Sequence record: OP595146.1
DNA from: Escherichia phage vB_EcoM_DE17
Strand: one strand, 5' to 3'
DNA: 64,000 nucleotides
The position numbers and the translations under genes are program-made. A model generated the notes under the pieces. That model saw only the letters and a list, made by a program, of their open reading frames with translations, was not told where the DNA came from and did not search any database. Shown piece after piece: positions 19,979 through 52,955 of the stretch. How positions within the stretch are numbered: position 1 is the stretch's first letter; each line of letters opens with the position of its first letter.

Positions 19979-20244
19979 TTCCTCGTTTTGATAACTGCTA
20001 AGATTTCTTTAGAGTCTGGTAAGAACCATGTGTAGTGATTCTCTTTGATTTCTGGATGAGTGTCAACCTTTATTTTGCACTCTTTACCAACGTGCTTAAG
20101 CTGTGCTGTGACACCTTGCATAAAGATATGACACATCACATTATCCATAATGGTTGGTAAGAAGTCAATTCGCATATAAGTTTCTTTTGGTCGTGGTAAC
20201 AGTAAGTAACCCTCTACGTAAAAAGTATCTTCATTCTCTGTCAT
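19975..20244 (-). CDS. hypothetical protein
   Basis: 89-aa ORF. Confidence 0.5.
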   Translation of the reverse strand: MTENEDTFYVEGYLLLPRPKETYMRIDFLPTIMDNVMCHIFMQGVTAQLKHVGKECKIKVDTHPEIKENHYTWFLPDSKEILAVIKTRK

Positions 20245-20510
20245 TGCTGTTTATTTCCTAATAAAATCATATCAATAAGGTTATTAGCTTTGATTGTGCA
20301 CTGGTAAAAACCATCACGATAAAACTCAAGGGCTGCTGCCACATCACTACCGGTATTACCTTTGATAGTGAATCTTGACTCCTCTTGAGTGTACTTGTCA
20401 CTCTCACTTACTTGGGAGTTTTTGAATGTACTGTTCACTTTGTTCGTTGAACACCCTGACATAATTATCAGTAACACAAACATTATAAAACTCTGGCTTA
20501 GTTTTTTCAT
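20241..20510 (-). CDS. putative o-spanin (Rz1-like outer-membrane lipoprotein)
   Basis: 89 aa; signal peptide with lipobox-like IIMSGC; starts inside the upstream gene in another frame, the classic Rz/Rz1 layout. Confidence 0.5.
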   Translation of the reverse strand: MKKLSQSFIMFVLLIIMSGCSTNKVNSTFKNSQVSESDKYTQEESRFTIKGNTGSDVAAALEFYRDGFYQCTIKANNLIDMILLGNKQQ

Positions 20511-20751
20511 ATGTTAGTACCTCTTTTGTATGCTTATTCTTAGCAAGCACATCTTTCAAATCATTTTTGTAATTGGTGCTCAGTGTGGCTAAACCTTCCT
20601 GATAAGCGTCTTTAGCAACACTTATTAGTTTCTCATTGCTTAACTCAGCTTCAGCAACTTGGTAGTCTCTGTAAGAGTATCCTCCCCAGACACCTGCCCC
20701 AACTAAGAAAACAATTATGAAAGTAGCTTGACAGAACTCTTTAAATGTCAT
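20404..20751 (-). CDS. putative i-spanin (Rz-like, N-terminal TM plus periplasmic coiled coil)
   Basis: 115 aa; N-terminal TM (ATFIIVFLVGAGVWGGY) followed by a charged helical region; overlaps the lipoprotein ORF. Confidence 0.5.
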   Translation of the reverse strand: MTFKEFCQATFIIVFLVGAGVWGGYSYRDYQVAEAELSNEKLISVAKDAYQEGLATLSTNYKNDLKDVLAKNKHTKEVLTYEKTKPEFYNVCVTDNYVRVFNEQSEQYIQKLPSK

Positions 20752-21283: not shown

Positions 21284-21975
21284 TGTTTAACTAACATGGT
21301 TTTAATGTGTGGAAGGATTCTGTTAACCTTCTGAACATTCTTCTCTGTATCTTCTATAAAACATACTATATTAAAATAAGGAAGAATGCAAGATTGAATC
21401 ATCCTCACTTTCAAACTTTCTGCACTTATAGAGTTAGTTCCAAAACCACGCATAAAAAGCATGTAATCATGCTCTATGTAATGCCTTAAAAACATCTCAG
21501 TAGGTACTCTCTGAGATTCACCCCTCGCTGTCAAGAGTCCAATGGTAGCATGATTAGAGATTGCATCAATAATATTGAAAACATATGTTGGTTTTGCACT
21601 TACAGAGTCAAGCAAATTAGTGTACTGTGAAAATGACCCATCAATCAGTTCCGTTGAGCAATCTTCGTGATTAAAATTTGTAAGAACACCATCAATATCT
21701 GCTAAGATGAGGTTACCTTTTTCTACAAGGTCTTTATTAACTATGACTAAACTGTCACGTCTTACACCTATAGATTGCCCCGTCTCTTTATCCACAACGT
21801 TCACAATTGGTTGTGATGTGTGGAACTCTTCAAGTGAACATACAACTTCTCTTGCAGTGTCTTCAAAATCCCTGCACTGTTCTGAAGTCCATACACAGGA
21901 ATCAAGACCTAACTCATGAGGGTGCAAGTCATAAGCATGGCACAATATTTCATCAGACTTTCTTAATTTTTTCAT
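21280..21975 (-). CDS. putative HAD-like hydrolase / nucleotidase
   Basis: 231 aa; ADIDGVLTN resembles HAD motif I (DxDGxL) and GLLTARGE motif II. Weak, motif-only. Confidence 0.4.
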   Translation of the reverse strand: MKKLRKSDEILCHAYDLHPHELGLDSCVWTSEQCRDFEDTAREVVCSLEEFHTSQPIVNVVDKETGQSIGVRRDSLVIVNKDLVEKGNLILADIDGVLTNFNHEDCSTELIDGSFSQYTNLLDSVSAKPTYVFNIIDAISNHATIGLLTARGESQRVPTEMFLRHYIEHDYMLFMRGFGTNSISAESLKVRMIQSCILPYFNIVCFIEDTEKNVQKVNRILPHIKTMLVKH

Positions 21976-22501
21976 GGTTTACCTTAGAAATGTTTGTTGC
22001 AAATTCACATTGAGCGATGACTTTCATATTGTTGTAGACATCTTGAGAGTATTTCTTAGCTTTAGGGATTTTGTACGAATACCCAGCATTATATGATGCT
22101 AAAACTTTTTGTAAAGTCTTCTTTGACTTTGGCTGACCATGCACCTTTGTCCAAAACTCAAGCTCTTTATGTGTTTCTTTTGCGGCATAATCAAAGTCCT
22201 TTAAGAGTTTCTTTTTAGCCACATTAGGACTGATTTTGTTACGCTTTACAACAGTCTTCAAGTGATTCTGGAAAATACCATAGTCGTGGGTCTTTTTATT
22301 CTCTACCTTCAGACCTAACTCTGACTCTTGTAAGGCTATAGCTGCTAGAGTAATACCCCAGCCTTTCCCCATATTATTCTCACCATACTGGTAAGCTTTT
22401 AACATGTTTACTTTTTGGCTAATTGTTAGCTCTGGGCAGTCAACTGCATAAGATAAGTGTGCTGTAAACATTAAGCACAAGCCTAGAATCAATTTCTTCA
22501 T
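21953..22501 (-). CDS. secreted lytic-transglycosylase-like (SLT domain) protein
   Basis: 182 aa; N-terminal signal peptide (MKKLILGLCLMFTAHLSYA), then ALQESELG ... YGIFQ resembling the SLT catalytic Glu-Ser and GLMQ-type motifs. Confidence 0.5.
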   Translation of the reverse strand: MKKLILGLCLMFTAHLSYAVDCPELTISQKVNMLKAYQYGENNMGKGWGITLAAIALQESELGLKVENKKTHDYGIFQNHLKTVVKRNKISPNVAKKKLLKDFDYAAKETHKELEFWTKVHGQPKSKKTLQKVLASYNAGYSYKIPKAKKYSQDVYNNMKVIAQCEFATNISKVNHEKIKKV

Positions 22502-22562
22502 TGGTTCTCCTGTTTAGTTTATCGTGACAACAATTATACAGCACTCTGCACAAAATACAAAT

Positions 22563-22586
22563 AAAAAAGGCCGCCGAAGCAGCCTT
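22563..22586 (-). terminator. rho-independent terminator (minus strand)
   Basis: GGCTGC-TTCG-GCGGCC hairpin then UUUUUU on the minus strand, just after rIIB. Confidence 0.55.
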
Positions 22587-22601
22587 TTAAGAAATTACTT
22601 A

Positions 22602-23711
22602 TTAGATTTCACGTTTACGTTGAGAGATAAGTTCACCAGCAGTGCCAACGATGACATGCAAAGCTTCAGTCTTACCATCCCATGCTTTCAGCACTTTACG
22701 TTGATTATCAACGATTGCTGCAACTTCATAACGAGAGGAACGCATCTTCATATCGTTGTAATCAGTTGGAACAGATACAACATCTCGTGGATGGACACGA
22801 ACCTTCAGGATGGTATCACCTGAGAAGCAACGAACATAATCCCAAGCACCAACATGAAGACCTTGAGAGCAAGTTACGTTACGGTTGTTATCAACCATCC
22901 AACGTGGCATCTCTACAATGTTACCCAAATCATTAGGTACTTTGTAGGTGTGAGAGTCAACCAGCTTGCCTTCACGAGTAGAGACTTTCTTCCAACCAAT
23001 GATGTAGCCTTCTTCATCAATTTCAACATCAAGGTGAGATACAAATCCCCAAAGTTGTTCTACAGAATCTTTAGATGGGTTTTCCATCAGTTTTTCGAAG
23101 AACATTACAAGTCGTTCAAAACCTTTATCACCAGTTTTCATCATGTGAAGAATACGGTCAACCAGAGTAGAACGCATCTCAACAGCACCGTAGAAGAGCT
23201 TGTCACCTTTGATTGTGATAGCGCCCTGAGTGAAGTTTTCGATAGACTTACGAATGTTCATCAGTTCAAATGCTTTCTTGAACTCACCTTTCACAACATG
23301 AACTACAATCTCTTGATAGTTCGGATGAGTAGATTCAACAATTTCAGATTCTGAACCGTAAGTCATAATTACAGAGTCACCAGTAATCATGTACTCAATC
23401 TTGTCATCTTTCTGCATAGCTTCATGCAGTTTATTCACTGGAGCTTTCTGTACAGCGTCTTTAACGACCTTTTCAACTGGTTTGCCAGCTTTCTTCTTAA
23501 AGGTCTTAGCAACTTGCTTCAAAGTCTTCGTAGCTGGTGTAGAAGCTGCCTTTTTCTTTCCTTTTAAGGTTGCTTCATGACGCTCTACAGCACGACCAAC
23601 TGAACGGGTTGAAGTATTGAACTTCTGTGCAATAGCTGTTTTAGTCAGCTTACCTTCTTTAACCAGTTCGTAAATTTCTGCGTCAATCTGTGCTTTAGTT
23701 TTAGTAGTCAT
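22602..23711 (-). CDS. rIIB: rIIB-like protein
   Basis: 369 aa; C-terminal KVRVHPRDVVSVPTDYNDMKMRSSRYEV closely matches the T4 rIIB C-terminus as recalled; adjacent to rIIA. Confidence 0.8.
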   Translation of the reverse strand: MTTKTKAQIDAEIYELVKEGKLTKTAIAQKFNTSTRSVGRAVERHEATLKGKKKAASTPATKTLKQVAKTFKKKAGKPVEKVVKDAVQKAPVNKLHEAMQKDDKIEYMITGDSVIMTYGSESEIVESTHPNYQEIVVHVVKGEFKKAFELMNIRKSIENFTQGAITIKGDKLFYGAVEMRSTLVDRILHMMKTGDKGFERLVMFFEKLMENPSKDSVEQLWGFVSHLDVEIDEEGYIIGWKKVSTREGKLVDSHTYKVPNDLGNIVEMPRWMVDNNRNVTCSQGLHVGAWDYVRCFSGDTILKVRVHPRDVVSVPTDYNDMKMRSSRYEVAAIVDNQRKVLKAWDGKTEALHVIVGTAGELISQRKREI

Positions 23712-23790
23712 CTTATTACTCTCTCTTGTTAATTAATAAATCATTTTGTAAGGCTATTCTAAGGGGCTTTGAAGCCCCTTGTCAAACACT

Positions 23791-26157
23791 TTAATCGTAA
23801 ATTGTAGTCCCTTCTGGAACACACTTCACATCAAAGCCTAAGAACTTACTCACTTCGATGGGTGACACTTTATTCCAATCTAAATGAGAAAGCAAGAAGT
23901 TTTCTTGTTTTCTTTTTGAAAGGTAGTTTGTCACCTTGATGACCATACGGTCACCAGCTTTCTTAATTTTCTTGTACAGCTTTGTATCATTATCAAGACA
24001 GCTTTTTAAATCTTGCAACACACTAATAGTGTAAGTGTATGCAAAAGGTGCAGCAACGTATTGGATTTTACCAAACATTGCCTCTACAGCATCTTCATTA
24101 CCTTCTAAGAAGATAGTTTTGTTTGTGTCTCGTGAATAGCAATAACCGCGAGAAATCTTCCTGTTATTGAACGTAAAGTTTCTGGCAATAATCCAACTGC
24201 TTGTAAGGTCTAGGACACCATTCATATAGATACGTGTCATATACCTGTTATGATTAATCCAGTGAACATCAGTTAAGCTGTCGTTCAAGAGCTTCTCATC
24301 TACTTCAATCCAGTCTTCTGGTATCTTTTTCCAATTTGCTTTTCGGAAAACATAGACTGTCTTTTCAATGACATTGGCAACTGACTTAGCTACATCTTCT
24401 GGAGATGAGCAAAAACATTCACCATCAACTGTGTCGCCTACTGCCTTAATATAAAGCTGAGGCTCTTCAATCGTATCTAAGTCTTCTGACACCTCTTTGT
24501 ATGAAGCTACGCCTTCTGCTGGAACAGCTTTCCAAAGTTTTACAACACCTCTTACAGCTTCTTTACGCTGATAATGGTGTTCCTTATCAGACATCTTCAC
24601 AATCTTTAACAAGCTTTTATCAAGTTTGTGAAGATTGATTAAATCATCTAGCTCTTCCTCATTAGAGAATACAAAGACGATACCATTGTATCTGTGAAAC
24701 AGACTTGACTCACTGGCATAGTCTCGACATGCACCACGCAGAATCTGATTGCGTCCTACAGTCTTCTCAGTACCATTTTTATTGCGACGGTCATTTATAA
24801 CAAACAAAAACTGTTCAATTTGACTTTTACGCATTGCGCCAAAGATATTGAACATACTTGCCTCTTGAGTGTAGGAAAGCGCTGTTGCACGAATCTTACT
24901 TTCTAAAGAGTTGAACTTAACATAAGCAACTGGATTATAAAGATAATCTACTTTAGGGATATTGTTCCCGTTCCTATCAACCTTAATATTGCCTTTACCG
25001 TCACGTTCGTAAATGACTGAGCCGTCTTCTGCGTAGATAATTCCACGACGAATGTTTAGTAATTCTTCTTCCAGAGAATCAAGCTTAACACCACCCCACT
25101 CTAGCTTTGGACACACAGCATTAAACATCTCTCGTGAGTTCAAGCGTAACTCAGCATAAGCCTGTGCAGCATCCATGAGTGTAGGTTGGCTATTAACTTT
25201 CTTGATAACATCCTTTGTAATTGCTTCAGTTATCTTTTTGGTAGCCTCAATGATAACATTTTTTGTCGTATCATTCATCTGCAATGCTTCACGAGAAGCT
25301 GCAATAGCAACTGAGCCAATAGGCATGTAGATGTTTACAAGGTCTACGCTCCTGCGGAAAAATTCTGGCAATACTTTGAAGAAATCATCACCAAGTAATG
25401 CTTCCATATTAACAGGGTAGGCAATGTTACCCATCACCACATTAAACTCTGTCCTGTTACCACTAGAACGCCAGCTTTGTTTGTGAATCATGGCATCATA
25501 AACACCTTCTTCACGGGCAATGACATTCATATCTGCTAATACATCGTCATACTCGATATTACTTTCTGGTTTTACAGCAAAGTATGAGTATACGTTACCA
25601 GCTTCTTCAAAGAACTTTGAGATGCGGTGGTCAGCAACTGCTACACGTACAGCTAAACCATTAGGCTCTTTTGTTGGGTTGGTGGTCAGTTTAGTTACTT
25701 GAGGAATGCCATTCTCAAGGTAAACAGAGTACTTATTAACCACACCATCAACATAGCTAGACACTGTGAATGACTGAGCAATTGCAAATGGGGATTTTGA
25801 GCCGATACCCATTGCACCAATGTAGTCATTAGAGTCATTCTTCGTAGAAGCCCCGTAGTTTAGGTACAAACTCATAACTTTATCATGAGTCAATCCAGTT
25901 CCAAAATCACGGACTTCAAAGTAAGGCTCAAAACGAGTAGGTAAATGCACATGGAACGGGATATTCTCTTTTCCAGCTTCTTTCTGAGCATCTACTGCGT
26001 TACATGACAGTTCACGAATCACTGCCCTTTCTTTAAAGGTATATACACCAGAACTCAAAAGGCTGAACATTTCAGGTGTCATTGTAATCTGTGCTTGAGA
26101 CGTCTCTAAAGAAGTTGAACTCTTAATCACTTCTGCGTGGTCATTTACCATGCGCAT
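23791..26157 (-). CDS. rIIA: rIIA-like protein (GHKL-type ATPase fold N-terminus)
   Basis: 788 aa; AVIRELSCNAVDA, RDFGTGL and SNDYIGAMGIGSKSPFA match the N-box/G1/G2 motifs of T4 rIIA as recalled. Confidence 0.85.
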   Translation of the reverse strand: MRMVNDHAEVIKSSTSLETSQAQITMTPEMFSLLSSGVYTFKERAVIRELSCNAVDAQKEAGKENIPFHVHLPTRFEPYFEVRDFGTGLTHDKVMSLYLNYGASTKNDSNDYIGAMGIGSKSPFAIAQSFTVSSYVDGVVNKYSVYLENGIPQVTKLTTNPTKEPNGLAVRVAVADHRISKFFEEAGNVYSYFAVKPESNIEYDDVLADMNVIAREEGVYDAMIHKQSWRSSGNRTEFNVVMGNIAYPVNMEALLGDDFFKVLPEFFRRSVDLVNIYMPIGSVAIAASREALQMNDTTKNVIIEATKKITEAITKDVIKKVNSQPTLMDAAQAYAELRLNSREMFNAVCPKLEWGGVKLDSLEEELLNIRRGIIYAEDGSVIYERDGKGNIKVDRNGNNIPKVDYLYNPVAYVKFNSLESKIRATALSYTQEASMFNIFGAMRKSQIEQFLFVINDRRNKNGTEKTVGRNQILRGACRDYASESSLFHRYNGIVFVFSNEEELDDLINLHKLDKSLLKIVKMSDKEHHYQRKEAVRGVVKLWKAVPAEGVASYKEVSEDLDTIEEPQLYIKAVGDTVDGECFCSSPEDVAKSVANVIEKTVYVFRKANWKKIPEDWIEVDEKLLNDSLTDVHWINHNRYMTRIYMNGVLDLTSSWIIARNFTFNNRKISRGYCYSRDTNKTIFLEGNEDAVEAMFGKIQYVAAPFAYTYTISVLQDLKSCLDNDTKLYKKIKKAGDRMVIKVTNYLSKRKQENFLLSHLDWNKVSPIEVSKFLGFDVKCVPEGTTIYD

Positions 26158-26185: not shown

Positions 26186-26362
26186 TTACTTATTAAACAT
26201 TTTACCAGAACCACCACACATAGGACAGCAACCTGCTCTTGTATAGCCTTCTCCATTACAGTAGTCACATTTTTTGTGTTCTGCAAAGTACTTACAAAGA
26301 AGATAAACAAGGACTGCTACACCACCAAGTGACAGTAAAATTTCTACCCAATATGCTTGCAT
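26186..26362 (-). CDS. hypothetical small membrane zinc-ribbon protein (58 aa, below ORF-track cutoff)
   Basis: Hand-translated MQAYWVEILLSLGGVAVLVYLLCKYFAEHKKCDYCNGEGYTRAGCCPMCGGSGKMFNK: one TM helix plus CxxC...CCPMCGG; lies directly upstream of rIIA. Confidence 0.35.
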   Translation of the reverse strand: MQAYWVEILLSLGGVAVLVYLLCKYFAEHKKCDYCNGEGYTRAGCCPMCGGSGKMFNK

Positions 26363-27043: not shown

Positions 27044-27067
27044 ATTAAAAAGGCTCCCGTAGGAGCC
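27044..27067 (-). terminator. rho-independent terminator (minus strand)
   Basis: GGCTCC-CGTA-GGAGCC hairpin with a minus-strand U-run, immediately after the NAMPT-like gene. Confidence 0.55.
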
Positions 27068-27082
27068 TCTTATCATATACTT

Positions 27083-28864
27083 TTAAAGCTGCTTGTCAAT
27101 ATTATTTCGAATATCACCAAGAGTTGTGTAGCCGAACTGCTCAGAGTCGCTAAAGACTAAACGTAAAGCACAAGCTGGATGTTCAAGTGCATCTGCAAAG
27201 CTCTGGAATCCATAGCCATCTACAGCTTTCAGATTCTCACCATCCCACATAGGGGCTACACCACCAAAAGCAGACTTCTTAACACCACTATCTGTTTTAG
27301 GGTCTTTTGCAAGCATAATCTCTTTACCACCAATTCTTGCAAGAGTTGCTTTGACAGCAAATGCAAAGGTGTCACGAGTCATGTACTGGTAAGTGTAAGA
27401 ACCTACACCAAACACTACGTTAGAGCTTGCAAAACCCATTTCATACAAACGCTTAAGGATTTCGTTTGCGCGTTCCAACGTGATAGAGTCACCATAAATA
27501 AGTCCGATATGCTCATCCAGTACTTTAAAACCTTTAGAGTTGATAGTTCCTCCAAAGATGTTATACAGTGTCTTGATAGCTCCATCAATCTCCGCTACAG
27601 GACGTGTTACAACGTTTGCAGAACCAACCATATAAGCATTTTTCAACAGCACTGTATCAGCAACTTCAAAGTCTTCTCTGTCAACAACCATTTCGTAACC
27701 TTCTGACAGTAGCCATCCAGCAATACCATAATTGATGTTTTCAAGCTTCATGTTCAGAACAGCATTCAGCATTGTGTCGCTGGCTTCCAGCTTACTTAGG
27801 TGTTCGTAATAAGCCTTTTTAGCACACTCTAAATGGATTGCTTTGTATCCTGTGACAATATGTACAGGGTCTCCAGAATCAGGACGAATTACCAGTTTGC
27901 CATCACGTTCCATAATCTCTTTACGGAGTTCTGGCAATATGACTGATACAGTTCTCCAGAAGTTATAAGTATCTGAAACAACACTTGCAATACCAGTTGG
28001 GTAAGTTTTTGTTAAGAAACGACGGAAGGTTTGTAACTCACCTTTAAAGCGTCTTTCTTCTTCAATCAACTCGTTACCACCTTCCCAAGCAATGTTTGCA
28101 CACATTACAGAATGTTCAGTGGCTGGTACAGAGCTACCAATATCAGAGATTGGGTAGGACTGTCCATAGATGCGTTTAGCTGTATACACAGCAGGGAAGC
28201 TATCAGTCCCTTTAAAGCTGGTTAAGTGACCTACAGCGTTAAATGCGTCATCAGTAAAGCCAGACATACCACGCATAGCAAAGTCATGGCACTGGTAAGG
28301 TAAATGTAAGTCGTTGTCACAAGTAAGGTCAGCCCACTTCTTACAGATACGTTTGTAGTGCAATGCAATAGTTGCAATGGTACAAGCCTTCCAAATCTCA
28401 GCAGAGAAAGCATCTTCCAGATACCCCGCTACCCAATGGAAACCTGAAACAGTGTTCTGGAAAACAATCATTGGTACACGCATAGGGACAACTGTACCTT
28501 CTTCTACAGCGTAGACTTCAACTGGTAAATAACCTAAGTCGTGGAGTGCTTCCCAATGTTCTCGACCAATAGCATCTTTACCCAGAACACCATTCATGAC
28601 TTCTAAGATTTCGTCAATTGCTTCTTTTTTGTCACGTTCAAAGAACGTAGCATTCCAATGGTCTATCAGGTAATCTTTAACAAAACGTTGAATACCAAAA
28701 GCAACTACACCATCAATTGCTAAGGGGCTGTTAAACCATTTGTCACTACGTGGTGTCAGGTTGAACATCAAGTACTCTGTTGCGCTAGGATACTGGTAGA
28801 TGTGACCAGATTTGTAAGCATCTGCGTTTAAACCTGCTGGTACTGCATAAAGTGATTTAGTCAT
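27083..28864 (-). CDS. nicotinamide phosphoribosyltransferase homolog (NadV/NAMPT family; Namat-like)
   Basis: 593 aa; N-terminal NADAYKSGH and overall length fit the NAMPT family; paired with a PRPP-synthetase homolog. Confidence 0.8.
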   Translation of the reverse strand: MTKSLYAVPAGLNADAYKSGHIYQYPSATEYLMFNLTPRSDKWFNSPLAIDGVVAFGIQRFVKDYLIDHWNATFFERDKKEAIDEILEVMNGVLGKDAIGREHWEALHDLGYLPVEVYAVEEGTVVPMRVPMIVFQNTVSGFHWVAGYLEDAFSAEIWKACTIATIALHYKRICKKWADLTCDNDLHLPYQCHDFAMRGMSGFTDDAFNAVGHLTSFKGTDSFPAVYTAKRIYGQSYPISDIGSSVPATEHSVMCANIAWEGGNELIEEERRFKGELQTFRRFLTKTYPTGIASVVSDTYNFWRTVSVILPELRKEIMERDGKLVIRPDSGDPVHIVTGYKAIHLECAKKAYYEHLSKLEASDTMLNAVLNMKLENINYGIAGWLLSEGYEMVVDREDFEVADTVLLKNAYMVGSANVVTRPVAEIDGAIKTLYNIFGGTINSKGFKVLDEHIGLIYGDSITLERANEILKRLYEMGFASSNVVFGVGSYTYQYMTRDTFAFAVKATLARIGGKEIMLAKDPKTDSGVKKSAFGGVAPMWDGENLKAVDGYGFQSFADALEHPACALRLVFSDSEQFGYTTLGDIRNNIDKQL

Positions 28865-28909: not shown

Positions 28910-29806
28910 TCAATCAAGGTTTGCTACAGTAACTTGACTATAATGTGTTAAGCCACGGTCTTTAGCTTCGCCTAAAGAGTTTGTAGTGTAAATATGGTCG
29001 ATACCATTGTCAAGAAGGTTTTCAACATCTTTAGAGAAGATACCATGTGTTACATAAAGTTCCACACGTTTTGCACCTGCTTCACGAAGATGTTTCGCTG
29101 CTTCTATGAAGGTTCGACCACCATCACAGATATCATCCAGAATCATAACGGTTTTATCTGTCAAATCAACATCATCAAGGATTCGCATACCAGTAATTTC
29201 ACCAGTCTTAAGGTTACGCACTTTAGACATTGTGATGTATGGTTTATCCACCTCTTTAGCAGTCTCTGCAATCTTCTTAGCAGCACCTGCATCTGGGGCT
29301 ACTAAGTAATCAATCAGTGGGTCATTTGCATAGTGGACTGCAATTTCCTTTTGAGGAATACTCTGGAAGCAGTTAAACAGGTTATCTGGTACATAGCTGT
29401 GAGGGTCAACTGCACAGACTGCACCAAATCCCATTGCATTTACCTGTTTAGCAAAAACCTTTAAAGCTGCTGCGTCACCTTTAAACATGTGACGGTCATA
29501 GCGTGCATTTGGTAAGTAGTAAAAGATGACAGTCTTTAAAGCATAATCATGAGGAATTAAATCATCAATTGCTTCTTTAGCAAGTGCCACAGCAAACAAT
29601 GTATCCTTATCATAACCTTTTACAATCATAATCACATTGTTGATGGATGATGCTGCATAAGCAGTGAAATCAACAAACTCTGGCGAAAAGTGTCCACCAA
29701 TCTCACCAGAAGGAAATTGGATGATGTTAAACTCTTCTTCATGAGTTCCTTTAGTTGGTGAATGAACTGTAACACGGATAGATGTTTTCATAGTTTTCTC
29801 TCTCAA
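28910..29806 (-). CDS. ribose-phosphate pyrophosphokinase homolog (Prs family; Adps-like)
   Basis: 298 aa; FPSGE (compare Prs FSDGE), DPHSYVPDNLF (compare DLHAEQIQGFF) and the PRPP-binding loop ILDDICDGGRT. Confidence 0.75.
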   Translation of the reverse strand: MREKTMKTSIRVTVHSPTKGTHEEEFNIIQFPSGEIGGHFSPEFVDFTAYAASSINNVIMIVKGYDKDTLFAVALAKEAIDDLIPHDYALKTVIFYYLPNARYDRHMFKGDAAALKVFAKQVNAMGFGAVCAVDPHSYVPDNLFNCFQSIPQKEIAVHYANDPLIDYLVAPDAGAAKKIAETAKEVDKPYITMSKVRNLKTGEITGMRILDDVDLTDKTVMILDDICDGGRTFIEAAKHLREAGAKRVELYVTHGIFSKDVENLLDNGIDHIYTTNSLGEAKDRGLTHYSQVTVANLD

Positions 29807-32865: not shown

Positions 32866-35010
32866 TTACATAGAGACTCTATCACGAATCTCAGCGATTT
32901 TTGCATCGTTCATTCGGGATTCACCTTTAATCTTAGTCCATCCAAGATACCCACACACCCTGTTAATCACAGAGATATCATGTGAATGGCAAACCTCACA
33001 TTCTTCAACATCAGCCTTTGGTCTGTTACCACAATGTTCACAGATTGCTAAGTCAAAGTTAAGCCCCTGATAGAAACCTTTCAACATCCCTCTGGTAATA
33101 CAACTTTTAAGTGCTGTTAAGTTTTCTGGATTAGCTACCCTTACATACTGGATTCTGCCACCTCTACAGATATGGAAGAATGGCTCTTCTAAGTCCTGCT
33201 TCTCAAATGGTGAGATGTCTGCTGCAACATTCATATGAAAACTATTTGTGAAGTATTCCTTGTCAGAAACACCTTTAATAACGCCAAACATATCTCTGAA
33301 CTGTTTTAACTGAGTTCCGCAAAGTGATTCTGCTGGAGTACCATAGACGGCATATAAGAAGCCATCTTCATTTTTAAACTCTTCAGTTTTCATGTTGATG
33401 TATGCCAGAACATCGTATGCAAAACTACAGCTTCCAACTTCATGAAGTCGTTTACCTTCAGCAAGAACAGATAGCTCATCAAGCGCGGTAACCCCAAAAG
33501 AAGCTGTGAAGGACTTCACGATATCCCAGCCAACCTTGTCAGTAGGTTTCTTATTCCCTTTGTACAGACCACCTTGTGTGAATGCAAGAGGGTTAGAACT
33601 TGCTGGCATATTAGCAATCATTTCGTAACGTTTCTTGTGGAAGCTGCGAATCATCTCTAGGTACTTATCAAGCTCTTTCCAGAAATCTAAGCCATTCTCT
33701 TTAGAATACTGGTAAATCATTGGTAAGTTCAAAGATACAGCACCAATGTTAGCACGACCAACATAGAACTCTTCCCCATTCTCATTAAAATATGGAGATA
33801 AGAAGGCTCTGCAACCCATCGGTGAAATTACCTTGCCAGAACGCTCAAAAGCTTCTGCTACAGCACCATGACCAGATACGCTTAAGAAATCTGGATACAT
33901 CGCTTTAGAGCAACACTCAATAGCTTTACTGTACAGGTGTCCTTGACAGATATTTTCATCATGTCTCTTCTGGTCATAGATATAAACCAGCTTAGGAAAT
34001 ACAACAGGTTTTTTACTCTTACCTTGTCCATTCATACGAACATCTAGGAGAGTACTTGCAATCATGTATTGTAGTCGGTTGTCTTCATTAGACATGTCTG
34101 AGTCAAGCAAACCAAATGTTAAAGTTGTGAATGCAAAATCACCACGGCTGCAAGGTACAGTATTTAGTTTCATCTCTAGTGACTGGAAGCCTTGAGTTAA
34201 TTCAATCTGTAGCTGCTCCATGACATAGTTATGGTAATGTTCTTTAGGAATACCGTAAGATGCTGCTTTCTCAGCATGATAGCGTAGAGACTTCTTAGCA
34301 TACGGTACAAGTGCCTTATCAATCTCTGCTAAAGTAAATCCACCAAATTGCTGTGCAGTTGCTGAAAGAACTACATCACCGATAACTTGTAAGGCTGACA
34401 GTACAGACTTCGGTTCACAGTATTCGATGCCAGACATTTCAAAGCCACCTTTCAGTACTTTACCAATGTCGAACAGGCAACAGTTAATCCCACCAAAAAT
34501 TAGGTCTCTTAAGTCATGGATGTAGATAAACCCTTTTTCAATGGCTTCGAGTTCCTCTGGTGTTAAATGGTACTGTTTAAAGATTTCTTTAGTCAGATAA
34601 CCACGAATAATTGAACCTTTTGTAGAAATTAAACTACTGTCAAAGTTAGCATTTTCACGGTCACCTAAGAAGAGTGTGTCTCTGGTCTTTTGGTAAAGCT
34701 CATCCCAATTTTGAGCAACCTCTTTACGGTAATTTCTGTATGTTGAGTAAGACTCATAAATCTCGTGATTGACTTCTGCCAAAGCACCCTCAACAATGCT
34801 GTGGATATCATTTACCGAGATAAGCAAATTACCCTGCTTAGTGGACTTTACCAGAATCCTCATAAATGCTGACTCAAGAGCTTGGGTAACATCTGGTGGC
34901 AGTTCTTTATATCCAACCCTGTTAGCTGACTTTGTCACTGCCGCTAAAACTTTTTTGATATCAGGTTCTTCAAGTGAGCCATTCTTTTTAATAATCTGTA
35001 CTTTGTTCAT
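32866..35010 (-). CDS. nrdD: anaerobic ribonucleoside-triphosphate reductase
   Basis: 714 aa; C-terminal glycyl-radical motif RVCGY and a preceding Cys-rich zinc ribbon (CEHCGN...CEVCH). Confidence 0.9.
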   Translation of the reverse strand: MNKVQIIKKNGSLEEPDIKKVLAAVTKSANRVGYKELPPDVTQALESAFMRILVKSTKQGNLLISVNDIHSIVEGALAEVNHEIYESYSTYRNYRKEVAQNWDELYQKTRDTLFLGDRENANFDSSLISTKGSIIRGYLTKEIFKQYHLTPEELEAIEKGFIYIHDLRDLIFGGINCCLFDIGKVLKGGFEMSGIEYCEPKSVLSALQVIGDVVLSATAQQFGGFTLAEIDKALVPYAKKSLRYHAEKAASYGIPKEHYHNYVMEQLQIELTQGFQSLEMKLNTVPCSRGDFAFTTLTFGLLDSDMSNEDNRLQYMIASTLLDVRMNGQGKSKKPVVFPKLVYIYDQKRHDENICQGHLYSKAIECCSKAMYPDFLSVSGHGAVAEAFERSGKVISPMGCRAFLSPYFNENGEEFYVGRANIGAVSLNLPMIYQYSKENGLDFWKELDKYLEMIRSFHKKRYEMIANMPASSNPLAFTQGGLYKGNKKPTDKVGWDIVKSFTASFGVTALDELSVLAEGKRLHEVGSCSFAYDVLAYINMKTEEFKNEDGFLYAVYGTPAESLCGTQLKQFRDMFGVIKGVSDKEYFTNSFHMNVAADISPFEKQDLEEPFFHICRGGRIQYVRVANPENLTALKSCITRGMLKGFYQGLNFDLAICEHCGNRPKADVEECEVCHSHDISVINRVCGYLGWTKIKGESRMNDAKIAEIRDRVSM

Positions 35011-40793: not shown

Positions 40794-41291
40794 TCAAGCA
40801 CAGTTTGCTTTCATTACCTTATGGATTCTTTTTTCAGCATCTTCATAAGTTTCTTTAGTAATAAACTTAATTGCTGCAATATTGGCATTGTAGAAGAGTC
40901 TGAGCTTAGAGTCAATCCTTTTTGTCATTACATCGAATTTATGTTGAAGGTTTGCTTCACCATAAACTAGACCACCTTTTGTGTAGTAGGTTTGAATAAT
41001 GTAAAAGTCAAAAAATTCTTTTCCAAAGCTCTCAATATCTTTTTTGATATACTCAGAAGAAGTCTCATAAGTCATCCAATCACTTTCCTTAGTGACTACC
41101 TTCTTCCGAGTCTTGCCAGCAACTTTTCTTTTGGTCACACTATTAAGCTGTTTCTTTCCGATATAGTATTGTCCGGTTTTCTTACAGTATACTAAATAGA
41201 CAAAGCCAAAATGTTTAGTGGGGTCAACTTCCCCACACAAAGATACCCAATGACCGTAGGTAGGACAATTGCCAAATCCTTTAATCTTCAT
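40794..41291 (-). CDS. putative GIY-YIG-type nuclease
   Basis: 165 aa; VYLVYCKKTGQYYIGKK resembles the GIY-(x9-10)-YIG signature. Motif-only. Confidence 0.35.
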   Translation of the reverse strand: MKIKGFGNCPTYGHWVSLCGEVDPTKHFGFVYLVYCKKTGQYYIGKKQLNSVTKRKVAGKTRKKVVTKESDWMTYETSSEYIKKDIESFGKEFFDFYIIQTYYTKGGLVYGEANLQHKFDVMTKRIDSKLRLFYNANIAAIKFITKETYEDAEKRIHKVMKANCA

Positions 41292-42321
41292 TCATACACG
41301 GCTCCCAATTATATTTCTTAAAAGAGAAATTATCTTTTGGATTTCTCTCTTGATATGCTATCCAGAAATGTTGCTCCATTAACTCTAATGGTGTTTTGGT
41401 AACAGTCTGTCCATCCCATGACACATAGGTGTAAGACTCTTTTTTAGCATAGAGTTCATAGATAGCGTCAAGGCACTCTTTATAGGTCTCTTTACCATCT
41501 AAAGCATTCATCACAGCTACTTTGCCAGCACCTTTAAGGCCGAAGTAGTTGTCTGCATTATCTCCAGCAACAGCCTGATAACACAAAAATTTAAAACCTA
41601 CACCAACTGTTTTTGCAGCTTTTGGTTTTGATTTGATAGGACAATCCCAGATATCACCAACATTATTGTCAGCAATAAAAATTAGTGGTGACTTTTCATA
41701 GGTCATATCAATACAATAAGTCCCTTCAGCTTGTCGAAGGTCTTTGTCAATACTCATAAGAGCAGCCTTCTTACCCATCTTTTCAGCTTTAGCAATTACG
41801 ATTGAGTCTGCTTCGAAGCCACCCTTTAAGAGTTTAAACTCTGGTCTTGATAAAAGATATTCACGACAAGCAACTAAGTGTGTTGGTGTGACAGCTTCTT
41901 TACGGTTACCTTGATATTGGTGCTCAAGCCCTTTAATGTCTTTATGTTTATGTACACCCTTCTCTGTTAGATAACCTACCCAAGTTCTTTCTTTACCAAC
42001 AACCTTAAGCCATTCCTGAAGAACCTGCTGAGTAGCCATGATAGCTTCTTTTTCACTCTTAGCTTCTTTCCAAGTCTGTCTTTCCCATTCATCTTCATCA
42101 AATGTCAGACCAAGTTCTTCCACAAGGATTCTCTGGTCTGCTAACCATCTTGCAGCGTCTTTTGCATTATCAAATGGTTCAGATTCTTCTGCTGTGAGTT
42201 TATTGACATATTTATATTTTGCTTTCTCAACTACACAAGCACCTTTATAGGCAATACTATCAGAGTCAATAAAGACATGTGTAACTGAATCTGGAAGTTT
42301 TGTTAGCGTATACTGCTCCAT
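41281..42321 (-). CDS. 5'-3' exonuclease / flap endonuclease (T7 gp6-like)
   Basis: 346 aa; N-terminal acidic cluster HVFIDSDSIAY and later SIDKDL follow the FEN/PIN-like pattern. Confidence 0.6.
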   Translation of the reverse strand: MEQYTLTKLPDSVTHVFIDSDSIAYKGACVVEKAKYKYVNKLTAEESEPFDNAKDAARWLADQRILVEELGLTFDEDEWERQTWKEAKSEKEAIMATQQVLQEWLKVVGKERTWVGYLTEKGVHKHKDIKGLEHQYQGNRKEAVTPTHLVACREYLLSRPEFKLLKGGFEADSIVIAKAEKMGKKAALMSIDKDLRQAEGTYCIDMTYEKSPLIFIADNNVGDIWDCPIKSKPKAAKTVGVGFKFLCYQAVAGDNADNYFGLKGAGKVAVMNALDGKETYKECLDAIYELYAKKESYTYVSWDGQTVTKTPLELMEQHFWIAYQERNPKDNFSFKKYNWEPCMNED

Positions 42322-43715: not shown

Positions 43716-45707
43716 TCACTCAGTTTCGAATGGGCAGTCATCTGCATCCTCACTTAATACAGGTGGAATCGTTGAGCTTTGACGCTGTTCTTCAGTATAG
43801 ACTTCACCAGTCTCACGGTCAAACACTTCATCCTCATAATGAGGTAAAGAGTCGTCATAATGGTCTTCAGCTTCACCAATACCAAACTGTTGACGAATAT
43901 TTTCTGCTGCGCCATCAATGTCAACACCACACCCAGAAGCTTTGATAAGACGTCCTGTGTCTGGATTGTACCAAGTATGACCAGCAATACCTGTTGACTT
44001 ACCATGACGACGACACTTAGTTAACTTGATTTTTGTCAAGTTTTTCTTAACAGGGTCTGGGTCAACCTTGTTACGCATTAACAGAATGTTGTTCATAGAA
44101 ATCTGGAAATACGCACCAGAACCTTTAATGTCCTCTTCAGAGATATCTCCACCTTCAGAGTTAGCTTTCTGACCACCTGCACTCTTACGAACGTGACAGA
44201 CGTTTACCTGTGCATACTGGTAGCGTTTGCAACGACGCAATAGCTCAGACAAAACTTCCTCTTCATCCGTATCTGAACGTGACAGAGCCAACGTAATAGG
44301 GTCAAGAATAATAATCTTACAGTCTAAACTGTTAACAAGATAGTCAACAAATTCCAGCAGGTTATCTTGGTCAATTGCCCCTTGATGGTCTACGATGTGG
44401 ATGCGACGACCTTTAGATAGTTCTGCGTGTGCTTCCTTTAATTCATCCCAATCACGTTCGTCATAAGGAATCTCAGAAATCTGTTTGCTCAGGTGAATTG
44501 CACAGAGCATCTCCATCAACTCTTCATAGGTATCTTCTACCGGAATTACACCAATATTGTAATCGGTTTCCTTCCAAGCTGAATAAATCATCTCACGAGT
44601 GTAAGCTGATTTACCTACTGAAGATGGTGCTGCCAGAGTTGTAATCTCTCCTAAACCATAACCACCGTAAGTTAGTCTGTTCAAATCCCCGAAAGATTCT
44701 GGGAAAGGAATCAATGGAATCTGACCACGATTCTTCATTGCCTCAAAACCATCTGCAAAGTTCTTGATACCAGCAGGGCAATAACGAGGTGCATTGTAGA
44801 TACGCTGCTTAAATCCTTCCAGAACTGTGTCTTTCTCTTTATAGAACTTTGTCCACCATTCATTAAGGTCTTTTACACCTTCTGGATACTGGAATAAACG
44901 CACCTTCTCAATAGGTAGGATACCAGCAGCCTCTTTGGTGGCTTTAGCACCTGCTTCATCGTTATCAAAGCACAAGTAAATTTCATCAAATGATGTAATG
45001 TACTGATAGTTATCTTTGATAGACTTGATGTTTGCACCTGACGGAACAGATACATGACAGTAATTCTTACGACGAGACTTATCCTTAATCGCCAAAGAAG
45101 TCATGTAGATTGCTGTGGCGCATTCCATCTCACCTTCCCAGATGAACAGACGATTCCCACCTTCTGGGGCAATCCATGAACCGAACATTGCCAGTTCACC
45201 TTTAATGTCTCCAACACCACCTGAAAAGTCTTTTAGCTTACCACGTAGGTGTTCTTTTGGATGGTCTTCTGGGTAACGGTGACGAACACGGTAGCCAACA
45301 TGTTCTAGCTTACCATCTTCATTACGTTTGTAAGTTGGATAGAAATGTGCATCAATTTCACCATCACTGTCAATGTCAACCTTGATACCTAAGCGTTCAA
45401 GAACTTTTGCAGGAATCTTCCTGTCTTTCAAGTCCATAGCTTCAAGGTTTTCTTTTACATCATCTAAATCCATTCCACGGAAAGTACGGTTTTTATTATC
45501 TGAACCAGTAGAATAAGTGCTCACAATTTGTCCTTTATCAAAATCCCACTCTGGAAAACCTTTGTTACAGCTAAAGCAAGTCATTGAATAGGAATCATCG
45601 TCATGGTGGTAGATTGAACCAGCATCTGATGAACCACAACGTGGACATGCACAATGACCAATAAACTGACCAGCCTCTTTCAATTTGCGACCTTTAGACA
45701 TTAGCAC
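43716..45707 (-). CDS. primase-helicase (T7 gp4-like)
   Basis: 663 aa; N-terminal zinc ribbon (CPRCGSSD...CFSCNKG), central TOPRIM-like region, C-terminal Walker A (GLGEITTLAAPSSVGKS). Confidence 0.85.
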   Translation of the reverse strand: MLMSKGRKLKEAGQFIGHCACPRCGSSDAGSIYHHDDDSYSMTCFSCNKGFPEWDFDKGQIVSTYSTGSDNKNRTFRGMDLDDVKENLEAMDLKDRKIPAKVLERLGIKVDIDSDGEIDAHFYPTYKRNEDGKLEHVGYRVRHRYPEDHPKEHLRGKLKDFSGGVGDIKGELAMFGSWIAPEGGNRLFIWEGEMECATAIYMTSLAIKDKSRRKNYCHVSVPSGANIKSIKDNYQYITSFDEIYLCFDNDEAGAKATKEAAGILPIEKVRLFQYPEGVKDLNEWWTKFYKEKDTVLEGFKQRIYNAPRYCPAGIKNFADGFEAMKNRGQIPLIPFPESFGDLNRLTYGGYGLGEITTLAAPSSVGKSAYTREMIYSAWKETDYNIGVIPVEDTYEELMEMLCAIHLSKQISEIPYDERDWDELKEAHAELSKGRRIHIVDHQGAIDQDNLLEFVDYLVNSLDCKIIILDPITLALSRSDTDEEEVLSELLRRCKRYQYAQVNVCHVRKSAGGQKANSEGGDISEEDIKGSGAYFQISMNNILLMRNKVDPDPVKKNLTKIKLTKCRRHGKSTGIAGHTWYNPDTGRLIKASGCGVDIDGAAENIRQQFGIGEAEDHYDDSLPHYEDEVFDRETGEVYTEEQRQSSTIPPVLSEDADDCPFETE

Positions 45708-47944: not shown

Positions 47945-48201
47945 GTAAGCCTCTTTTAAGTAACTATTAAGTTTTAATCTTTTATCTTAACGTATTCTAT
48001 ACGTTATACTTTAAAGCTTTTTAAAAGCTATTAAATAATCTTTTAAGAGTTTTAAAGTATCTGTATAGTTAAACTGTTAAGTAACCTTTTAAGTAAAAAC
48101 CCACTTCGCAAAGATTAACACCTTGTCAAGTACATTGTCAACTTGCTTTTTATAATTTTTTGCAGTAATGTATGAGGTTAATGATTTTAGAGGGAGTAAA
48201 A
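47945..48201. promoter_or_regulatory. divergent AT-rich control region upstream of the polymerase gene
   Basis: Strand-switch point; rich in CTTTTAAG/TTAAGT motifs; TATAAT at 48151-48156 and a GGGAG RBS before the ATG at 48202. Confidence 0.4.
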
Positions 48202-50901
48202 ATGGAAAACGTAGATTTTAAAAACTTACATTTAGTTGGTGATACAGAAACTGATGGTTTACTCCTTGAGTTCACTAAAGTGCACGTAATGGCTTTCGCA
48301 GACTATAAATCTGACGATGAAGAGCCACCTGTATGGGTCTTTACAGATGAGCCTATCCTCGGTCACAAATACACCAAGTACATCAAGGGTGGTTTGCGTG
48401 AAGGTATTGAGTTTGCGTTAAAGGCAAAACGACTTTGCATCCATAATGGTCTGGGTTATGACTGGTGGGTATTCAATCACATTGCACCTGATTTGTGGAA
48501 CTTTGATAATCCAAAGTGTAAACCGTGGAGTAATTTCTTTCAGGATTCTCTTATCCAATCTCGTGTTCAGTGGATGGATAGGCCAACTCCAAAAGGCTAT
48601 AAAGGTGCTCATGGCTTGGCGGCATGGGGTGCTCGTGTTGGTGTCCGTAAACCAGAGATTGAACATTGGGGTGTGTGGAATGCAGAAATCTTCACTCGTG
48701 TTGTAGAAGATATCCGTATTAACGCCAAAACTAAACGTGCACTGGATAATGAATACCTGAAGTTAAAGAAGTGTGGTATAGACACTTATGAAACCTATAT
48801 GCGAGCTAAAGAAACATCTTTCTGGATGAGTCAACAAGCTATCAATGGTTGGAAAGCCGATAAAGAGCTTATGGAGTTCCATGTAAAGGAACTTGACAAG
48901 TTGACTAATGAGCTTGCTTCGGAAGTTGAACCACATCTTCCTCCAACTATTAAGACCAAAGGTAAAGTTACTGGGGAAGAGTTTGCAAAAGCTTGGAATG
49001 AGTATGTTGAAGCATTCGGTCATGCAGATGGACTGAAGAGAATTACCAAGTACCCTAAGACAAAGTATCGTCAACAGGTACGTAACGGTGAGATGCAGAC
49101 ATACGAAATCAAGCCATTTGGTAAGCCAACTACAAAGATTTTTAACATTGAAAAGAGAAATTGCTATACACCAACCAACTCTGTAACTGGTGAAGAGTAC
49201 AAGGAAGGTTTTGTAGCAATGAAGGATGCTCGTGCAATTTGCAACGAGTTGAATGCAAAGATTGGTAAGAAATGCAAAGACTGGAAGCCAGTAAAAACAG
49301 TTAAAACTGTGAAGTACTATAACAGTCATGTTGTTAATCACTTTGAACTAGAGTCAAGTCGCTACACAGGATTGATTGATGCACCATATACACCAATTGA
49401 GTTTGAAGTTTCTCGTATGACTCAGGTAGCAGTTGTTAAAGACTACTTAAAATCAGTTGGTTGGATTCCAGATGACTGGAACTACAAGAAAGACTCAGAT
49501 GGTCGCCCTGTCAAAGTTTGTCGTTTCAAAGACAACAAAAAGATGATTACAAAGCATCCTAAGTGGCAGGAGATGGTGGAACGGTGTGGGTTGAGCTATG
49601 TTGAACACGAAGGTGTCCAGTACATTGAGCATAACTGGTCTGTGAAGAAATACACAGATTTACTTGAGCCTTGCTTAATCCGCACTTCACCAAAACTTAC
49701 TGAATCTTCTTATGATACGATTGAAGGTGAGCTTGGACAGAAGATTGCTAAGTACTATACTTTGATGCACCGACGCAGAACCATTGAGAACTCAAAGGAT
49801 GATGAAAAAGGTTGGCTAAACCAGATTCGTCCTGATGGTCGCCTTAGTGCTGGTGCAATGGTATTTGGTACTTCAACTGGACGTATGACACAATATGGTA
49901 TTGTAAACGTACCGTCTGGTGCTGCTGTCTATGGGGAACCAATGAGGGCAGTGTGGATTTGTGAAGAGGGTACTAACGTTGTCTCTGTAGACATGAACTC
50001 AGCCCAGCTAGTTCTCCTTTGTAACTTTATGGGTGATAAAGACTTCACCAAAGCGGTAACGCAAGGTAAAGAAGAGATTGAGTTTATTCGTCAAGAAGAT
50101 GGACGCTATTACTGCAAACACTTTGATGAGTACCTCAACCCAGAGATTGATAAGTACCTTCGCTATGACTCTGAGAATGACCTGTACGTTGTCTATTCAG
50201 GGACTGATGCACACACACTGAACAGTATTTACTTTAGCTTGAATGATGAGCAGGATATCTTGACTTGTCGAGCCACTCAGGATGAGAATCTTCTCCATGA
50301 GATTAGTAAGGGTCGTAAAAAAGCTAAGAATGGTATCTATGCACTACTGTTCGGTGCAGGTGATGAGAAGTTTGCTAAGACGATTAAAGCTGCAACTACT
50401 CAGGAAGGTGCACTGACTAAACAGACTTACTTTATTCGTTTGCCTAAAATTAAGAAGCTGCTAGATGACTTGGAAGCTGACTACAAAGCGACTAAAAAGG
50501 CACTTGAAGAGGTGTTTGGTAAGACTGCTGCAATCTCTAAAGGAGGATTTGTAAAGGTTGCTGGGGCTTGGTTGTGGTGTAAATCTCCACACAAACTGTT
50601 GAACTATCTTTTGATGGGTTCAGAGGCTCAGATTCAAAATGAGGCAATTAACCTTGCTTGTCGTCGTATGATTGACGAAGGTTTGATGAAGTTGAATGGT
50701 CGTCAACCAGCTATTGGTGCTCGTTTGCTCTGCGCATATCACGATGAAACAAGCTGGGAATGTCCAGAAAGTATGACGGCAGAAGTGAAAGCAGTTACTG
50801 ACTGGTATTATGGACAAGCTTCTAAGAACTTAGGTCTTAAGAAAGAAACACTTGTAACAGGTACTGGTAAGGTTGGTAAAAGCTGGCTTGAAGTGCACTA
50901 A
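48202..50901 (+). CDS. DNA polymerase, family A, with 3'-5' exonuclease domain
   Basis: N-terminal Exo I motif LVGDTETDG; polymerase motif A-like VDMNSAQLVLL and motif C-like AYHDET. Start set to the RBS-preceded ATG at 48202. Confidence 0.85.
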   Translation: MENVDFKNLHLVGDTETDGLLLEFTKVHVMAFADYKSDDEEPPVWVFTDEPILGHKYTKYIKGGLREGIEFALKAKRLCIHNGLGYDWWVFNHIAPDLWNFDNPKCKPWSNFFQDSLIQSRVQWMDRPTPKGYKGAHGLAAWGARVGVRKPEIEHWGVWNAEIFTRVVEDIRINAKTKRALDNEYLKLKKCGIDTYETYMRAKETSFWMSQQAINGWKADKELMEFHVKELDKLTNELASEVEPHLPPTIKTKGKVTGEEFAKAWNEYVEAFGHADGLKRITKYPKTKYRQQVRNGEMQTYEIKPFGKPTTKIFNIEKRNCYTPTNSVTGEEYKEGFVAMKDARAICNELNAKIGKKCKDWKPVKTVKTVKYYNSHVVNHFELESSRYTGLIDAPYTPIEFEVSRMTQVAVVKDYLKSVGWIPDDWNYKKDSDGRPVKVCRFKDNKKMITKHPKWQEMVERCGLSYVEHEGVQYIEHNWSVKKYTDLLEPCLIRTSPKLTESSYDTIEGELGQKIAKYYTLMHRRRTIENSKDDEKGWLNQIRPDGRLSAGAMVFGTSTGRMTQYGIVNVPSGAAVYGEPMRAVWICEEGTNVVSVDMNSAQLVLLCNFMGDKDFTKAVTQGKEEIEFIRQEDGRYYCKHFDEYLNPEIDKYLRYDSENDLYVVYSGTDAHTLNSIYFSLNDEQDILTCRATQDENLLHEISKGRKKAKNGIYALLFGAGDEKFAKTIKAATTQEGALTKQTYFIRLPKIKKLLDDLEADYKATKKALEEVFGKTAAISKGGFVKVAGAWLWCKSPHKLLNYLLMGSEAQIQNEAINLACRRMIDEGLMKLNGRQPAIGARLLCAYHDETSWECPESMTAEVKAVTDWYYGQASKNLGLKKETLVTGTGKVGKSWLEVH

Positions 50902-52762: not shown

Positions 52763-52954
52763 ATGAACAAAGAAGATAAACATAAAAATGCTGTACGAAC
52801 TCCTGATGGAAAGGTTCAATCCTTCATCCTTACAGTTGGTGGAAAGCCATTTCGTTGCCACTGCGGAGCAAACTGTTTTCATAAACCAGATAAAAATGAC
52901 TTAGAGCTTTACGCATGTAATGCTTGCAATACTTGGTATCACTCAGAGGAATAA
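52763..52954 (+). CDS. zinc-ribbon small protein (paralog of 52235..52438)
   Basis: 63 aa; CHCGANCFHKPDKNDLELYACNACN. Confidence 0.55.
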   Translation: MNKEDKHKNAVRTPDGKVQSFILTVGGKPFRCHCGANCFHKPDKNDLELYACNACNTWYHSEE

Positions 52955-52955
52955 A

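Follow-up and report, generated by a model that had tools for sequence, protein, structure and literature searches.

The rIIA–rIIB pair of Escherichia phage vB_EcoM_DE17, a probable Ounavirinae version of the phage rII anti-defence module

Introduction

Knock-down of RIIA or RIIB in the phages SUSP1, N4, T4, MM02 and EdH4 is harmless on hosts without Rex but lowers plating on hosts with lambda RexAB (PMC11879866), and deletion of either g84 or g85, the rII genes of Bas63, lowers plating 10^4- to 10^5-fold on hosts with QatABCD, complementation restoring it (preprint 10.1101/2024.10.10.617714). RIIB can also be a liability: that of T6 is by itself enough to set off a CARD-gasdermin defence system (PMC10312443). 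Here we analyse the rIIA–rIIB pair of Escherichia phage vB_EcoM_DE17 (record OP595146.1) within a stretch of 64,000 nucleotides, referred to below as the window. The two open reading frames (ORFs) exactly fill positions 22602 to 26157, from the stop of rIIB to the start of rIIA. We consider it probable, at roughly 85%, that they are the Ounavirinae version of the phage rII anti-defence module, a module whose mechanism is still being sought after seventy years.

The rII locus and its closest relatives

Stretches of 5 kb and 25 kb around the pair are 95–97% identical in nucleotide sequence to many Escherichia, Salmonella and Shigella Felixounavirus phages, which places the window as a Felixounavirus genome (subfamily Ounavirinae, Felix O1-like); in the records of Felixounavirus relatives the two genes are already named rIIA and rIIB. 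Here rIIA (788 residues; 23791..26157, minus strand) lies immediately upstream of rIIB (369 residues; 22602..23711, minus strand) with a gap of 79 nucleotides, and the same order on one strand recurs in Bas63, SUSP1, Tribble, Yersinia phage P778 and the loci that we label L011, L012 and L013.

Bas63 (JohannRWettstein; bas63_0084/0085), also a Felixounavirus, carries the pair at the same locus among the same neighbours. Its RIIA (gp84) is 98.2% identical to the window protein and its RIIB 83.2% identical; the N-terminal helix-turn-helix (HTH) of RIIB is the same in both, and divergence rises toward the C-terminus, where the last 34 residues are 41% identical. The SUSP1 proteins (Suspvirus, Ounavirinae) have nearly the same lengths as those of the window (790 versus 788 residues for RIIA, 373 versus 369 for RIIB) and are 63% and 81% identical to them, RIIA having changed far faster than the replication core, where identity is 91–96%. 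T4 likewise has rIIA followed by rIIB on one strand, with RIIB homologous over its whole length and the RIIA ATPase motifs and the region after them conserved. However, the last 470 residues of RIIA share no sequence similarity with T4, T4 RIIB lacks both the lysine-rich linker of about 45 residues and the 30-residue tail found here, and the gap between the genes is about 11 nucleotides in T4, as opposed to 79 nucleotides in the window, where the gap has its own promoter.

RIIB

RIIB matches phrog_609 ('RIIB lysis inhibitor') with E 1.3e-89 and T4 RIIB with 37% identity across T4 residues 13–312 of 312 (E 1e-60). An HTH (residues 6–51) is followed by a lysine-rich, disordered linker (53–91), the conserved Phage_T4_rIIB region (94–335) and a C-terminal tail of 30 residues; the AlphaFold2 (AF2) model has a pLDDT of 82. 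Conservation is strong in the C-terminal block (TCSQGLHV...HPRDVVSVPTDYNDMKMR), the family motif TCSxGLHV...HPRDVVS(V/I)PxDYNDxKMR is present there, and the invariant residues (C281, G284, L285, H286 and P308) all fall in the C-terminal domain. For the 98%-identical cluster representative P0121, a match to the family PF26926 (Phage_T4_rIIB) is on record; our local Pfam scan of RIIA and RIIB, with a copy of Pfam that does not contain PF26926, returned no family match and only a sub-threshold HTH.

The domain layout raises the alternative that RIIB is mainly a DNA-binding transcription regulator with RIIA as its ATPase partner, protection from defence systems being indirect. Iyer et al. (2021) count RIIB among the phage-specific transcription factors (PMC7824862), and the linker, with 13 lysines or arginines in 41 residues, would suit such a role. 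The HTH itself resembles sigma region 4 and LuxR and is kept in most family members, but many others do without it while retaining the C-terminal domain, in which all the invariant residues lie, and loss of the gene has no phenotype when no defence system is present. We therefore regard a primarily regulatory role as unlikely.

The linker is also a site of variation within the family. Three homologues (P0154, P0169 and P0143) carry one or more extra small domains within it, with a repeated motif 'V.W.NG..N.Y...DLE' (alignment A2, columns 200–600), and three family members match Pfam MIB_HERC2; the window RIIB has only the plain lysine-rich linker.

RIIA

RIIA aligns with positions 1–716 of the 725 in phrog_612 ('RIIA lysis inhibitor'; E 2.3e-189) and, by BLASTP, with residues 24–317 of T4 RIIA (32% identity, E 8e-37); our family profile A1 aligns residues 1–577 of T4 RIIA with 290 bits. 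At the level of sequence, the likeness to T4 is specific to RIIA and extends past the ATPase core to about residue 317. The original prediction for this stretch, made from its letters, had called the two genes clear rIIA and rIIB homologs, and the PHROG and T4 matches of both proteins bear it out: the similarity of RIIA is more than a generic GHKL likeness, and the C-terminus of RIIB is strongly conserved.

The N-terminal part of RIIA (approximately residues 25–200) is predicted to be a GHKL/Hsp90-like ATPase domain; after it come another conserved region, reaching to about residue 320, and a lineage-specific C-terminal half. We examined the motif patterns ExxxNxxD (N-box), DxGxG (G1) and GxxGxG (G2); the corresponding residues E49/N53/D56, D84/G86(/G88) and G114/G117/G119/K121 are invariant among 57 RIIA homologues. 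No Pfam GHKL model matched RIIA at E <0.1 in the local scan, and PF13589 is recorded on RIIA homologues. No transmembrane segment was found in RIIA or RIIB. These features mark RIIA as a soluble GHKL ATPase whose nucleotide-binding motifs are all intact and whose overall build, judging from the AF2 model (pLDDT 85), is Hsp90/TRAP1-like.

The solved structures closest to that model are the Hsp90 family members TRAP1, HtpG and Hsc82 (E 8e-18 to 1e-13 over 580–700 columns), yet identities are 10–14% and TM-scores 0.30–0.33. A search of the PDB with the RIIA sequence profile found TRAP1 as the only family (E 5e-5), and PDB sequence searches returned no solved relative of RIIA or RIIB. The NCBIfam 'HSP90 family protein' match is sub-threshold (E 3e-11; 42.5 bits versus a cut-off of 455), and a literature search linking RIIA with Hsp90 brought up nothing relevant. 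An Hsp90-like build does not imply chaperone activity.

The C-terminal half of RIIA (470 residues), described in the literature as highly variable, appears from its sequence to evolve fast. A profile of it built from Ounavirinae only scores −2.3 bits on T4 RIIA. Predicted structures of T4-type RIIA proteins (KVP40, 44RR2.8t and RB43) nevertheless align with our model over ~810–890 columns with TMq 0.45–0.50, as compared with the 0.38 reachable from the N-terminal 300 residues alone. Homology of this half to T4 is thus suggested by predicted folds only.

The pair as core genes of the lineage

In our phage collection, full-length RIIA of the Ounavirinae type occurs in 301 records, as compared with 302 that carry the primase-helicase of the lineage at no less than 60% identity. 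Gene order between 18 and 63 kb is unbroken relative to SUSP1, which belongs to another genus of the same subfamily, and the local order of phosphoribosyl pyrophosphate (PRPP) synthase, nicotinamide phosphoribosyltransferase (NAMPT), small ORFs, rIIA, rIIB, SLT-like protein and polynucleotide kinase is found again in Bas63, in Tribble and in P778, a distant Yersinia phage. The guanine-plus-cytosine (GC) contents of the two genes, 0.39 and 0.41, are close to the 0.386 of the window, and in a large protein database full-length RIIA homologues come only from contigs of 82–92 kb of the Ounavirinae lineage. Because of this shared gene order, GC, record counts and homologue distribution, we regard the rII pair as core, vertically inherited Ounavirinae genes.

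The original prediction had instead taken the pair, next to T7-like replication genes, as the sign of a mosaic genome. One version of that idea has the pair recently acquired from a T4-like phage by a genome with T7-like replication genes. It could draw on the facts that the nearest RIIB relatives outside the Ounavirinae are T4-type phages (34–41% identity) and that the relatives of the replication genes are T7-like podoviruses, but identity to T4 is only 32–37%, and GC, synteny and the presence/absence counts given above lead us to reject recent acquisition, against which the restriction of full-length RIIA to the 82–92 kb contigs also speaks; we hold an import to be extremely improbable. The comparison of related genomes for presence or absence that had been proposed comes out the same way, with the pair retained across the Ounavirinae. 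More broadly, RIIA homologues occur in 2,920 phage records and RIIB homologues in 2,910, and beyond T4 they are found in N4-like podoviruses and in rV5-like, Vi1-like and Streptomyces phages, so it is commonplace for an rII pair to occur without a T4-type replisome, and this does not by itself indicate mosaicism.

Function

By orthology (63–98% identity), rIIA and rIIB of the window are probably dispensable on defence-free hosts and each needed against an abortive-infection system. The original prediction had associated rII proteins with resistance to Rex-type exclusion, which the SUSP1 knock-downs confirm (PMC11879866); the proposed plating of rII-deficient phage on Rex-like hosts has already been done in relatives, with SUSP1 on RexAB and Bas63 on QatABCD. 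In practical terms, the rII genes probably protect this phage from abortive infection of the RexAB and QatABCD types, with the proviso that its rIIB allele differs from the Bas63 allele that was tested.

RIIA and RIIB act together in relatives and, again by orthology, probably do so here. Four observations argue for joint action: either gene is needed, the record counts are near-equal (2920 versus 2910), RB43 holds a natural RIIA–RIIB fusion of 1049 residues (BFVD Q56C47), and the phrog_609 profile of 1055 positions spans both proteins, positions 31–299 matching the RIIA N-terminus and 755–1048 matching RIIB.

Judging from the sequence, host RNA polymerase would transcribe the pair within a long leftward early/middle block, in a unit set off by two terminators. 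Our best guess at a mechanism is that an ATP-driven RIIA–RIIB complex would act at the interface of membrane and DNA. There it may shield phage replication or recombination intermediates, or their attachment to the membrane, from DNA-sensing defence components such as RexA, so that membrane depolarisation or nuclease action downstream would never start. As the site of action we prefer the DNA/membrane interface to a channel that would be plugged directly, because RexA binds DNA (PMC11077077), a nuclease is part of QatABCD and RIIB has a domain of DNA-binding type.

Several points weigh against an anti-defence role of this kind for the pair. The functional evidence comes from relatives, and RIIB is only 83% identical to that of Bas63 and 81% to that of SUSP1, so its specificity could differ. 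The classical view puts rII action at the membrane, yet both proteins appear from their sequences to be without a transmembrane segment. Classically, T4 RIIB can do without its N-terminal part, which argues against an essential role for the HTH. Finally, the PhageMaP result on Bas63 is a preprint, and it claims more than 80% homology of g84 and g85 to T4 RIIA and RIIB, where we measured 32% (in the N-terminal 300 residues only) and 36%.

The name under which these proteins are filed reflects a different function, the control of lysis timing, with lysis delayed on superinfection. The original prediction followed this usage, which survives as legacy annotation in PHROGs and GenBank, and the position of the genes could be read in its favour: they lie 1.8–2.4 kb from a spanin pair (20241–20751) and beside an SLT-like secreted protein. 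In T4, however, it is rI, rIII and the holin that lysis inhibition requires, not rII. The T4 annotation assigns the rapid-lysis phenotype to prophage genes, and five phages in which the genes were knocked down or deleted, the relatives SUSP1 and Bas63 among them, showed no defect when no defence system was present. Because loss of the genes is without phenotype in that setting, we take 'lysis inhibitor' to be a historical name and consider lysis control by the pair very unlikely.

Two rIIB alleles within the genus

Relative to Bas63 (locus L007), nucleotide identity falls in a patch at 22540–23540, from 90–97% in the flanks to 84–89% inside rIIB and 61% at its 3′ end, and dN/dS, the ratio of nonsynonymous to synonymous substitution rates, is 0.24 for rIIB as compared with 0.026 for rIIA. 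The window's rIIB allele matches that of Tribble at 98% and that of KEP3 at 100%. The divergence patch, taken with these two matches, implies that two rIIB alleles circulate in Felixounavirus with an exchange boundary inside the gene, and the sequences thus point to fine-scale exchange at rIIB within the genus.

Transcription signals and an upstream miniprotein

Between rIIA and rIIB lies a predicted sigma-70-like promoter (TTGACA-N18-TAGAAT, 23756..23785, minus strand; 11/12 consensus positions matched), which would let rIIB be transcribed alone. The promoter is a conserved feature of the subfamily, its −35 and −10 hexamers being kept in Bas63, Tribble, SUSP1 and Yersinia phage P778. The spacer forms a GC hairpin (GGGGCT-loop-AGCCCC) whose stem is kept in SUSP1 with another loop; the hairpin is absent from P778. 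A putative intrinsic terminator (22565..22588, minus strand) begins 14 nucleotides past the rIIB stop, with a 10-bp stem including 5 GC pairs and a T-run, and a second follows the NAMPT gene (27048..27071, minus strand; a 10-bp stem plus T-run); Tribble annotates terminators at both sites. The two would mark off a unit that comprises three small ORFs as well as rIIA and rIIB. A further promoter-like site, ending at 26156, was rejected as a promoter for rIIA, since it abuts the rIIA start codon and cannot serve that gene.

The ORF 28 nucleotides upstream of rIIA (26186..26362, minus strand) encodes a miniprotein of 58 residues (phrog_3931) with one predicted transmembrane helix (hydropathy peak 2.16) and two CxxCxGxG motifs resembling the DnaJ-type zinc finger. 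Its gene is likewise found upstream of rIIA in Bas63, SUSP1, Tribble and Yersinia phage P778 (L010:4819–4983), and in the metagenomic locus L012 it is present upstream of rIIA as an uncalled ORF from position 909. Altogether the miniprotein lies directly upstream of rIIA in 6 of the 8 loci examined, down to 35–38% RIIA identity; the L011/L013 clade and T4 lack it. The upstream gene of T4, rIIA.1, differs from it in encoding neither a transmembrane helix nor cysteines.

This arrangement brings up the possibility, to us an unlikely one, that the Felix O1-type rII module has three parts: a membrane-anchored zinc-finger miniprotein, RIIA as an Hsp90/TRAP1-like ATPase, and RIIB. In that case the miniprotein would tether an ATP-driven, chaperone-like RIIA–RIIB machine to the inner membrane, which, if true, would account for an action of rII proteins at the membrane even though they have no transmembrane segments of their own. 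Its absence from the L011/L013 clade and T4 counts against such a module, as does the Bas63 screen, which flagged only g84 and g85 and not the miniprotein (preprint 10.1101/2024.10.10.617714). The Hsp90-like RIIA, the HTH of RIIB and the conserved membrane zinc-finger neighbour nonetheless offer leads on the rII mechanism, none of them specific to the window.

Neighbouring genes and replication genes

The neighbours of the pair comprise the three small ORFs, NAD-salvage genes, an SLT-like protein, a polynucleotide kinase and spanins. Just upstream of the rII unit are the NAMPT gene (27083–28864, minus strand) and a ribose-phosphate pyrophosphokinase-like gene (28910–29806, minus strand). Their Bas63 orthologues, g80 and g79, are reported to counter the Sir2-HerA defence, which makes the surroundings of the rII pair look like an anti-defence neighbourhood.

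Directly downstream of rIIB, an ORF at 21953–22501 (minus strand) encodes a 182-residue protein (phrog_600) with a signal-peptide-like N-terminus; its counterparts in P778 and L011 have weak matches to Pfam SLT (lytic transglycosylase), and some records call it a 'putative lysin'. Beyond this ORF are the genes for the i-spanin (20404–20751) and o-spanin (20241–20510). The Felix O1 paper reports no holin-lysin cassette (PMC3185647).

The replication genes are 15–27 kb from the rII pair, so the two groups do not sit beside each other as had been stated, and the T7-like set listed in the original prediction holds in part. The family A polymerase (48172–50901, plus strand) matches Pfam DNA_pol_A (E 5.5e-15) and T7 gp5 in two collinear blocks (E 5e-13), and the fused primase-helicase (43716–45707, minus strand; Pfam Toprim_2 and DnaB_C) is 27.7% identical to T7 gp4 over 592 residues (E 1e-44). 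An exonuclease is present (41281–42321, minus strand; phrog_107 'exonuclease', E 2.8e-63; no Pfam match), its likeness to T7 gp6 being weak (20.8% identity over 221 residues, E 1.2e-5, from a single pairwise comparison). The ATP-dependent ligase (52920–54059, plus strand; Pfam DNA_ligase_A_M and DNA_ligase_OB_2) is not of T7 type: its comparison with T7 gp1.3 yields E 7.7 in BLASTP and no match in phmmer, and the nearest non-phage relatives of the Felix O1 ligase are eukaryotic (Whichard et al., PMC3185647). The rII pair is annotated in hundreds of Felix O1-like genomes, and its occurrence together with T7-like replication genes in a phage of this type is already known. The combination of rIIAB with a T7-like polymerase and gp4-type helicase was published in the 2010 Felix O1 genome paper, which places the polymerase nearest to podoviral ones, that of T7 among them, and also lists a GP4d-type helicase, an ATP-dependent ligase and a 5′ exonuclease (PMC3185647).

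Elsewhere in the window, nrdD (anaerobic ribonucleotide reductase, 714 residues; 32866–35010, minus strand) is intact; in Tribble and Bas63 the gene is interrupted by an insertion with an HNH homing endonuclease. At the left edge, two tRNA genes (Glu-TTC and Pro-TGG; 119–280, minus strand) presumably belong to the tRNA cluster of Felix O1-type phages.

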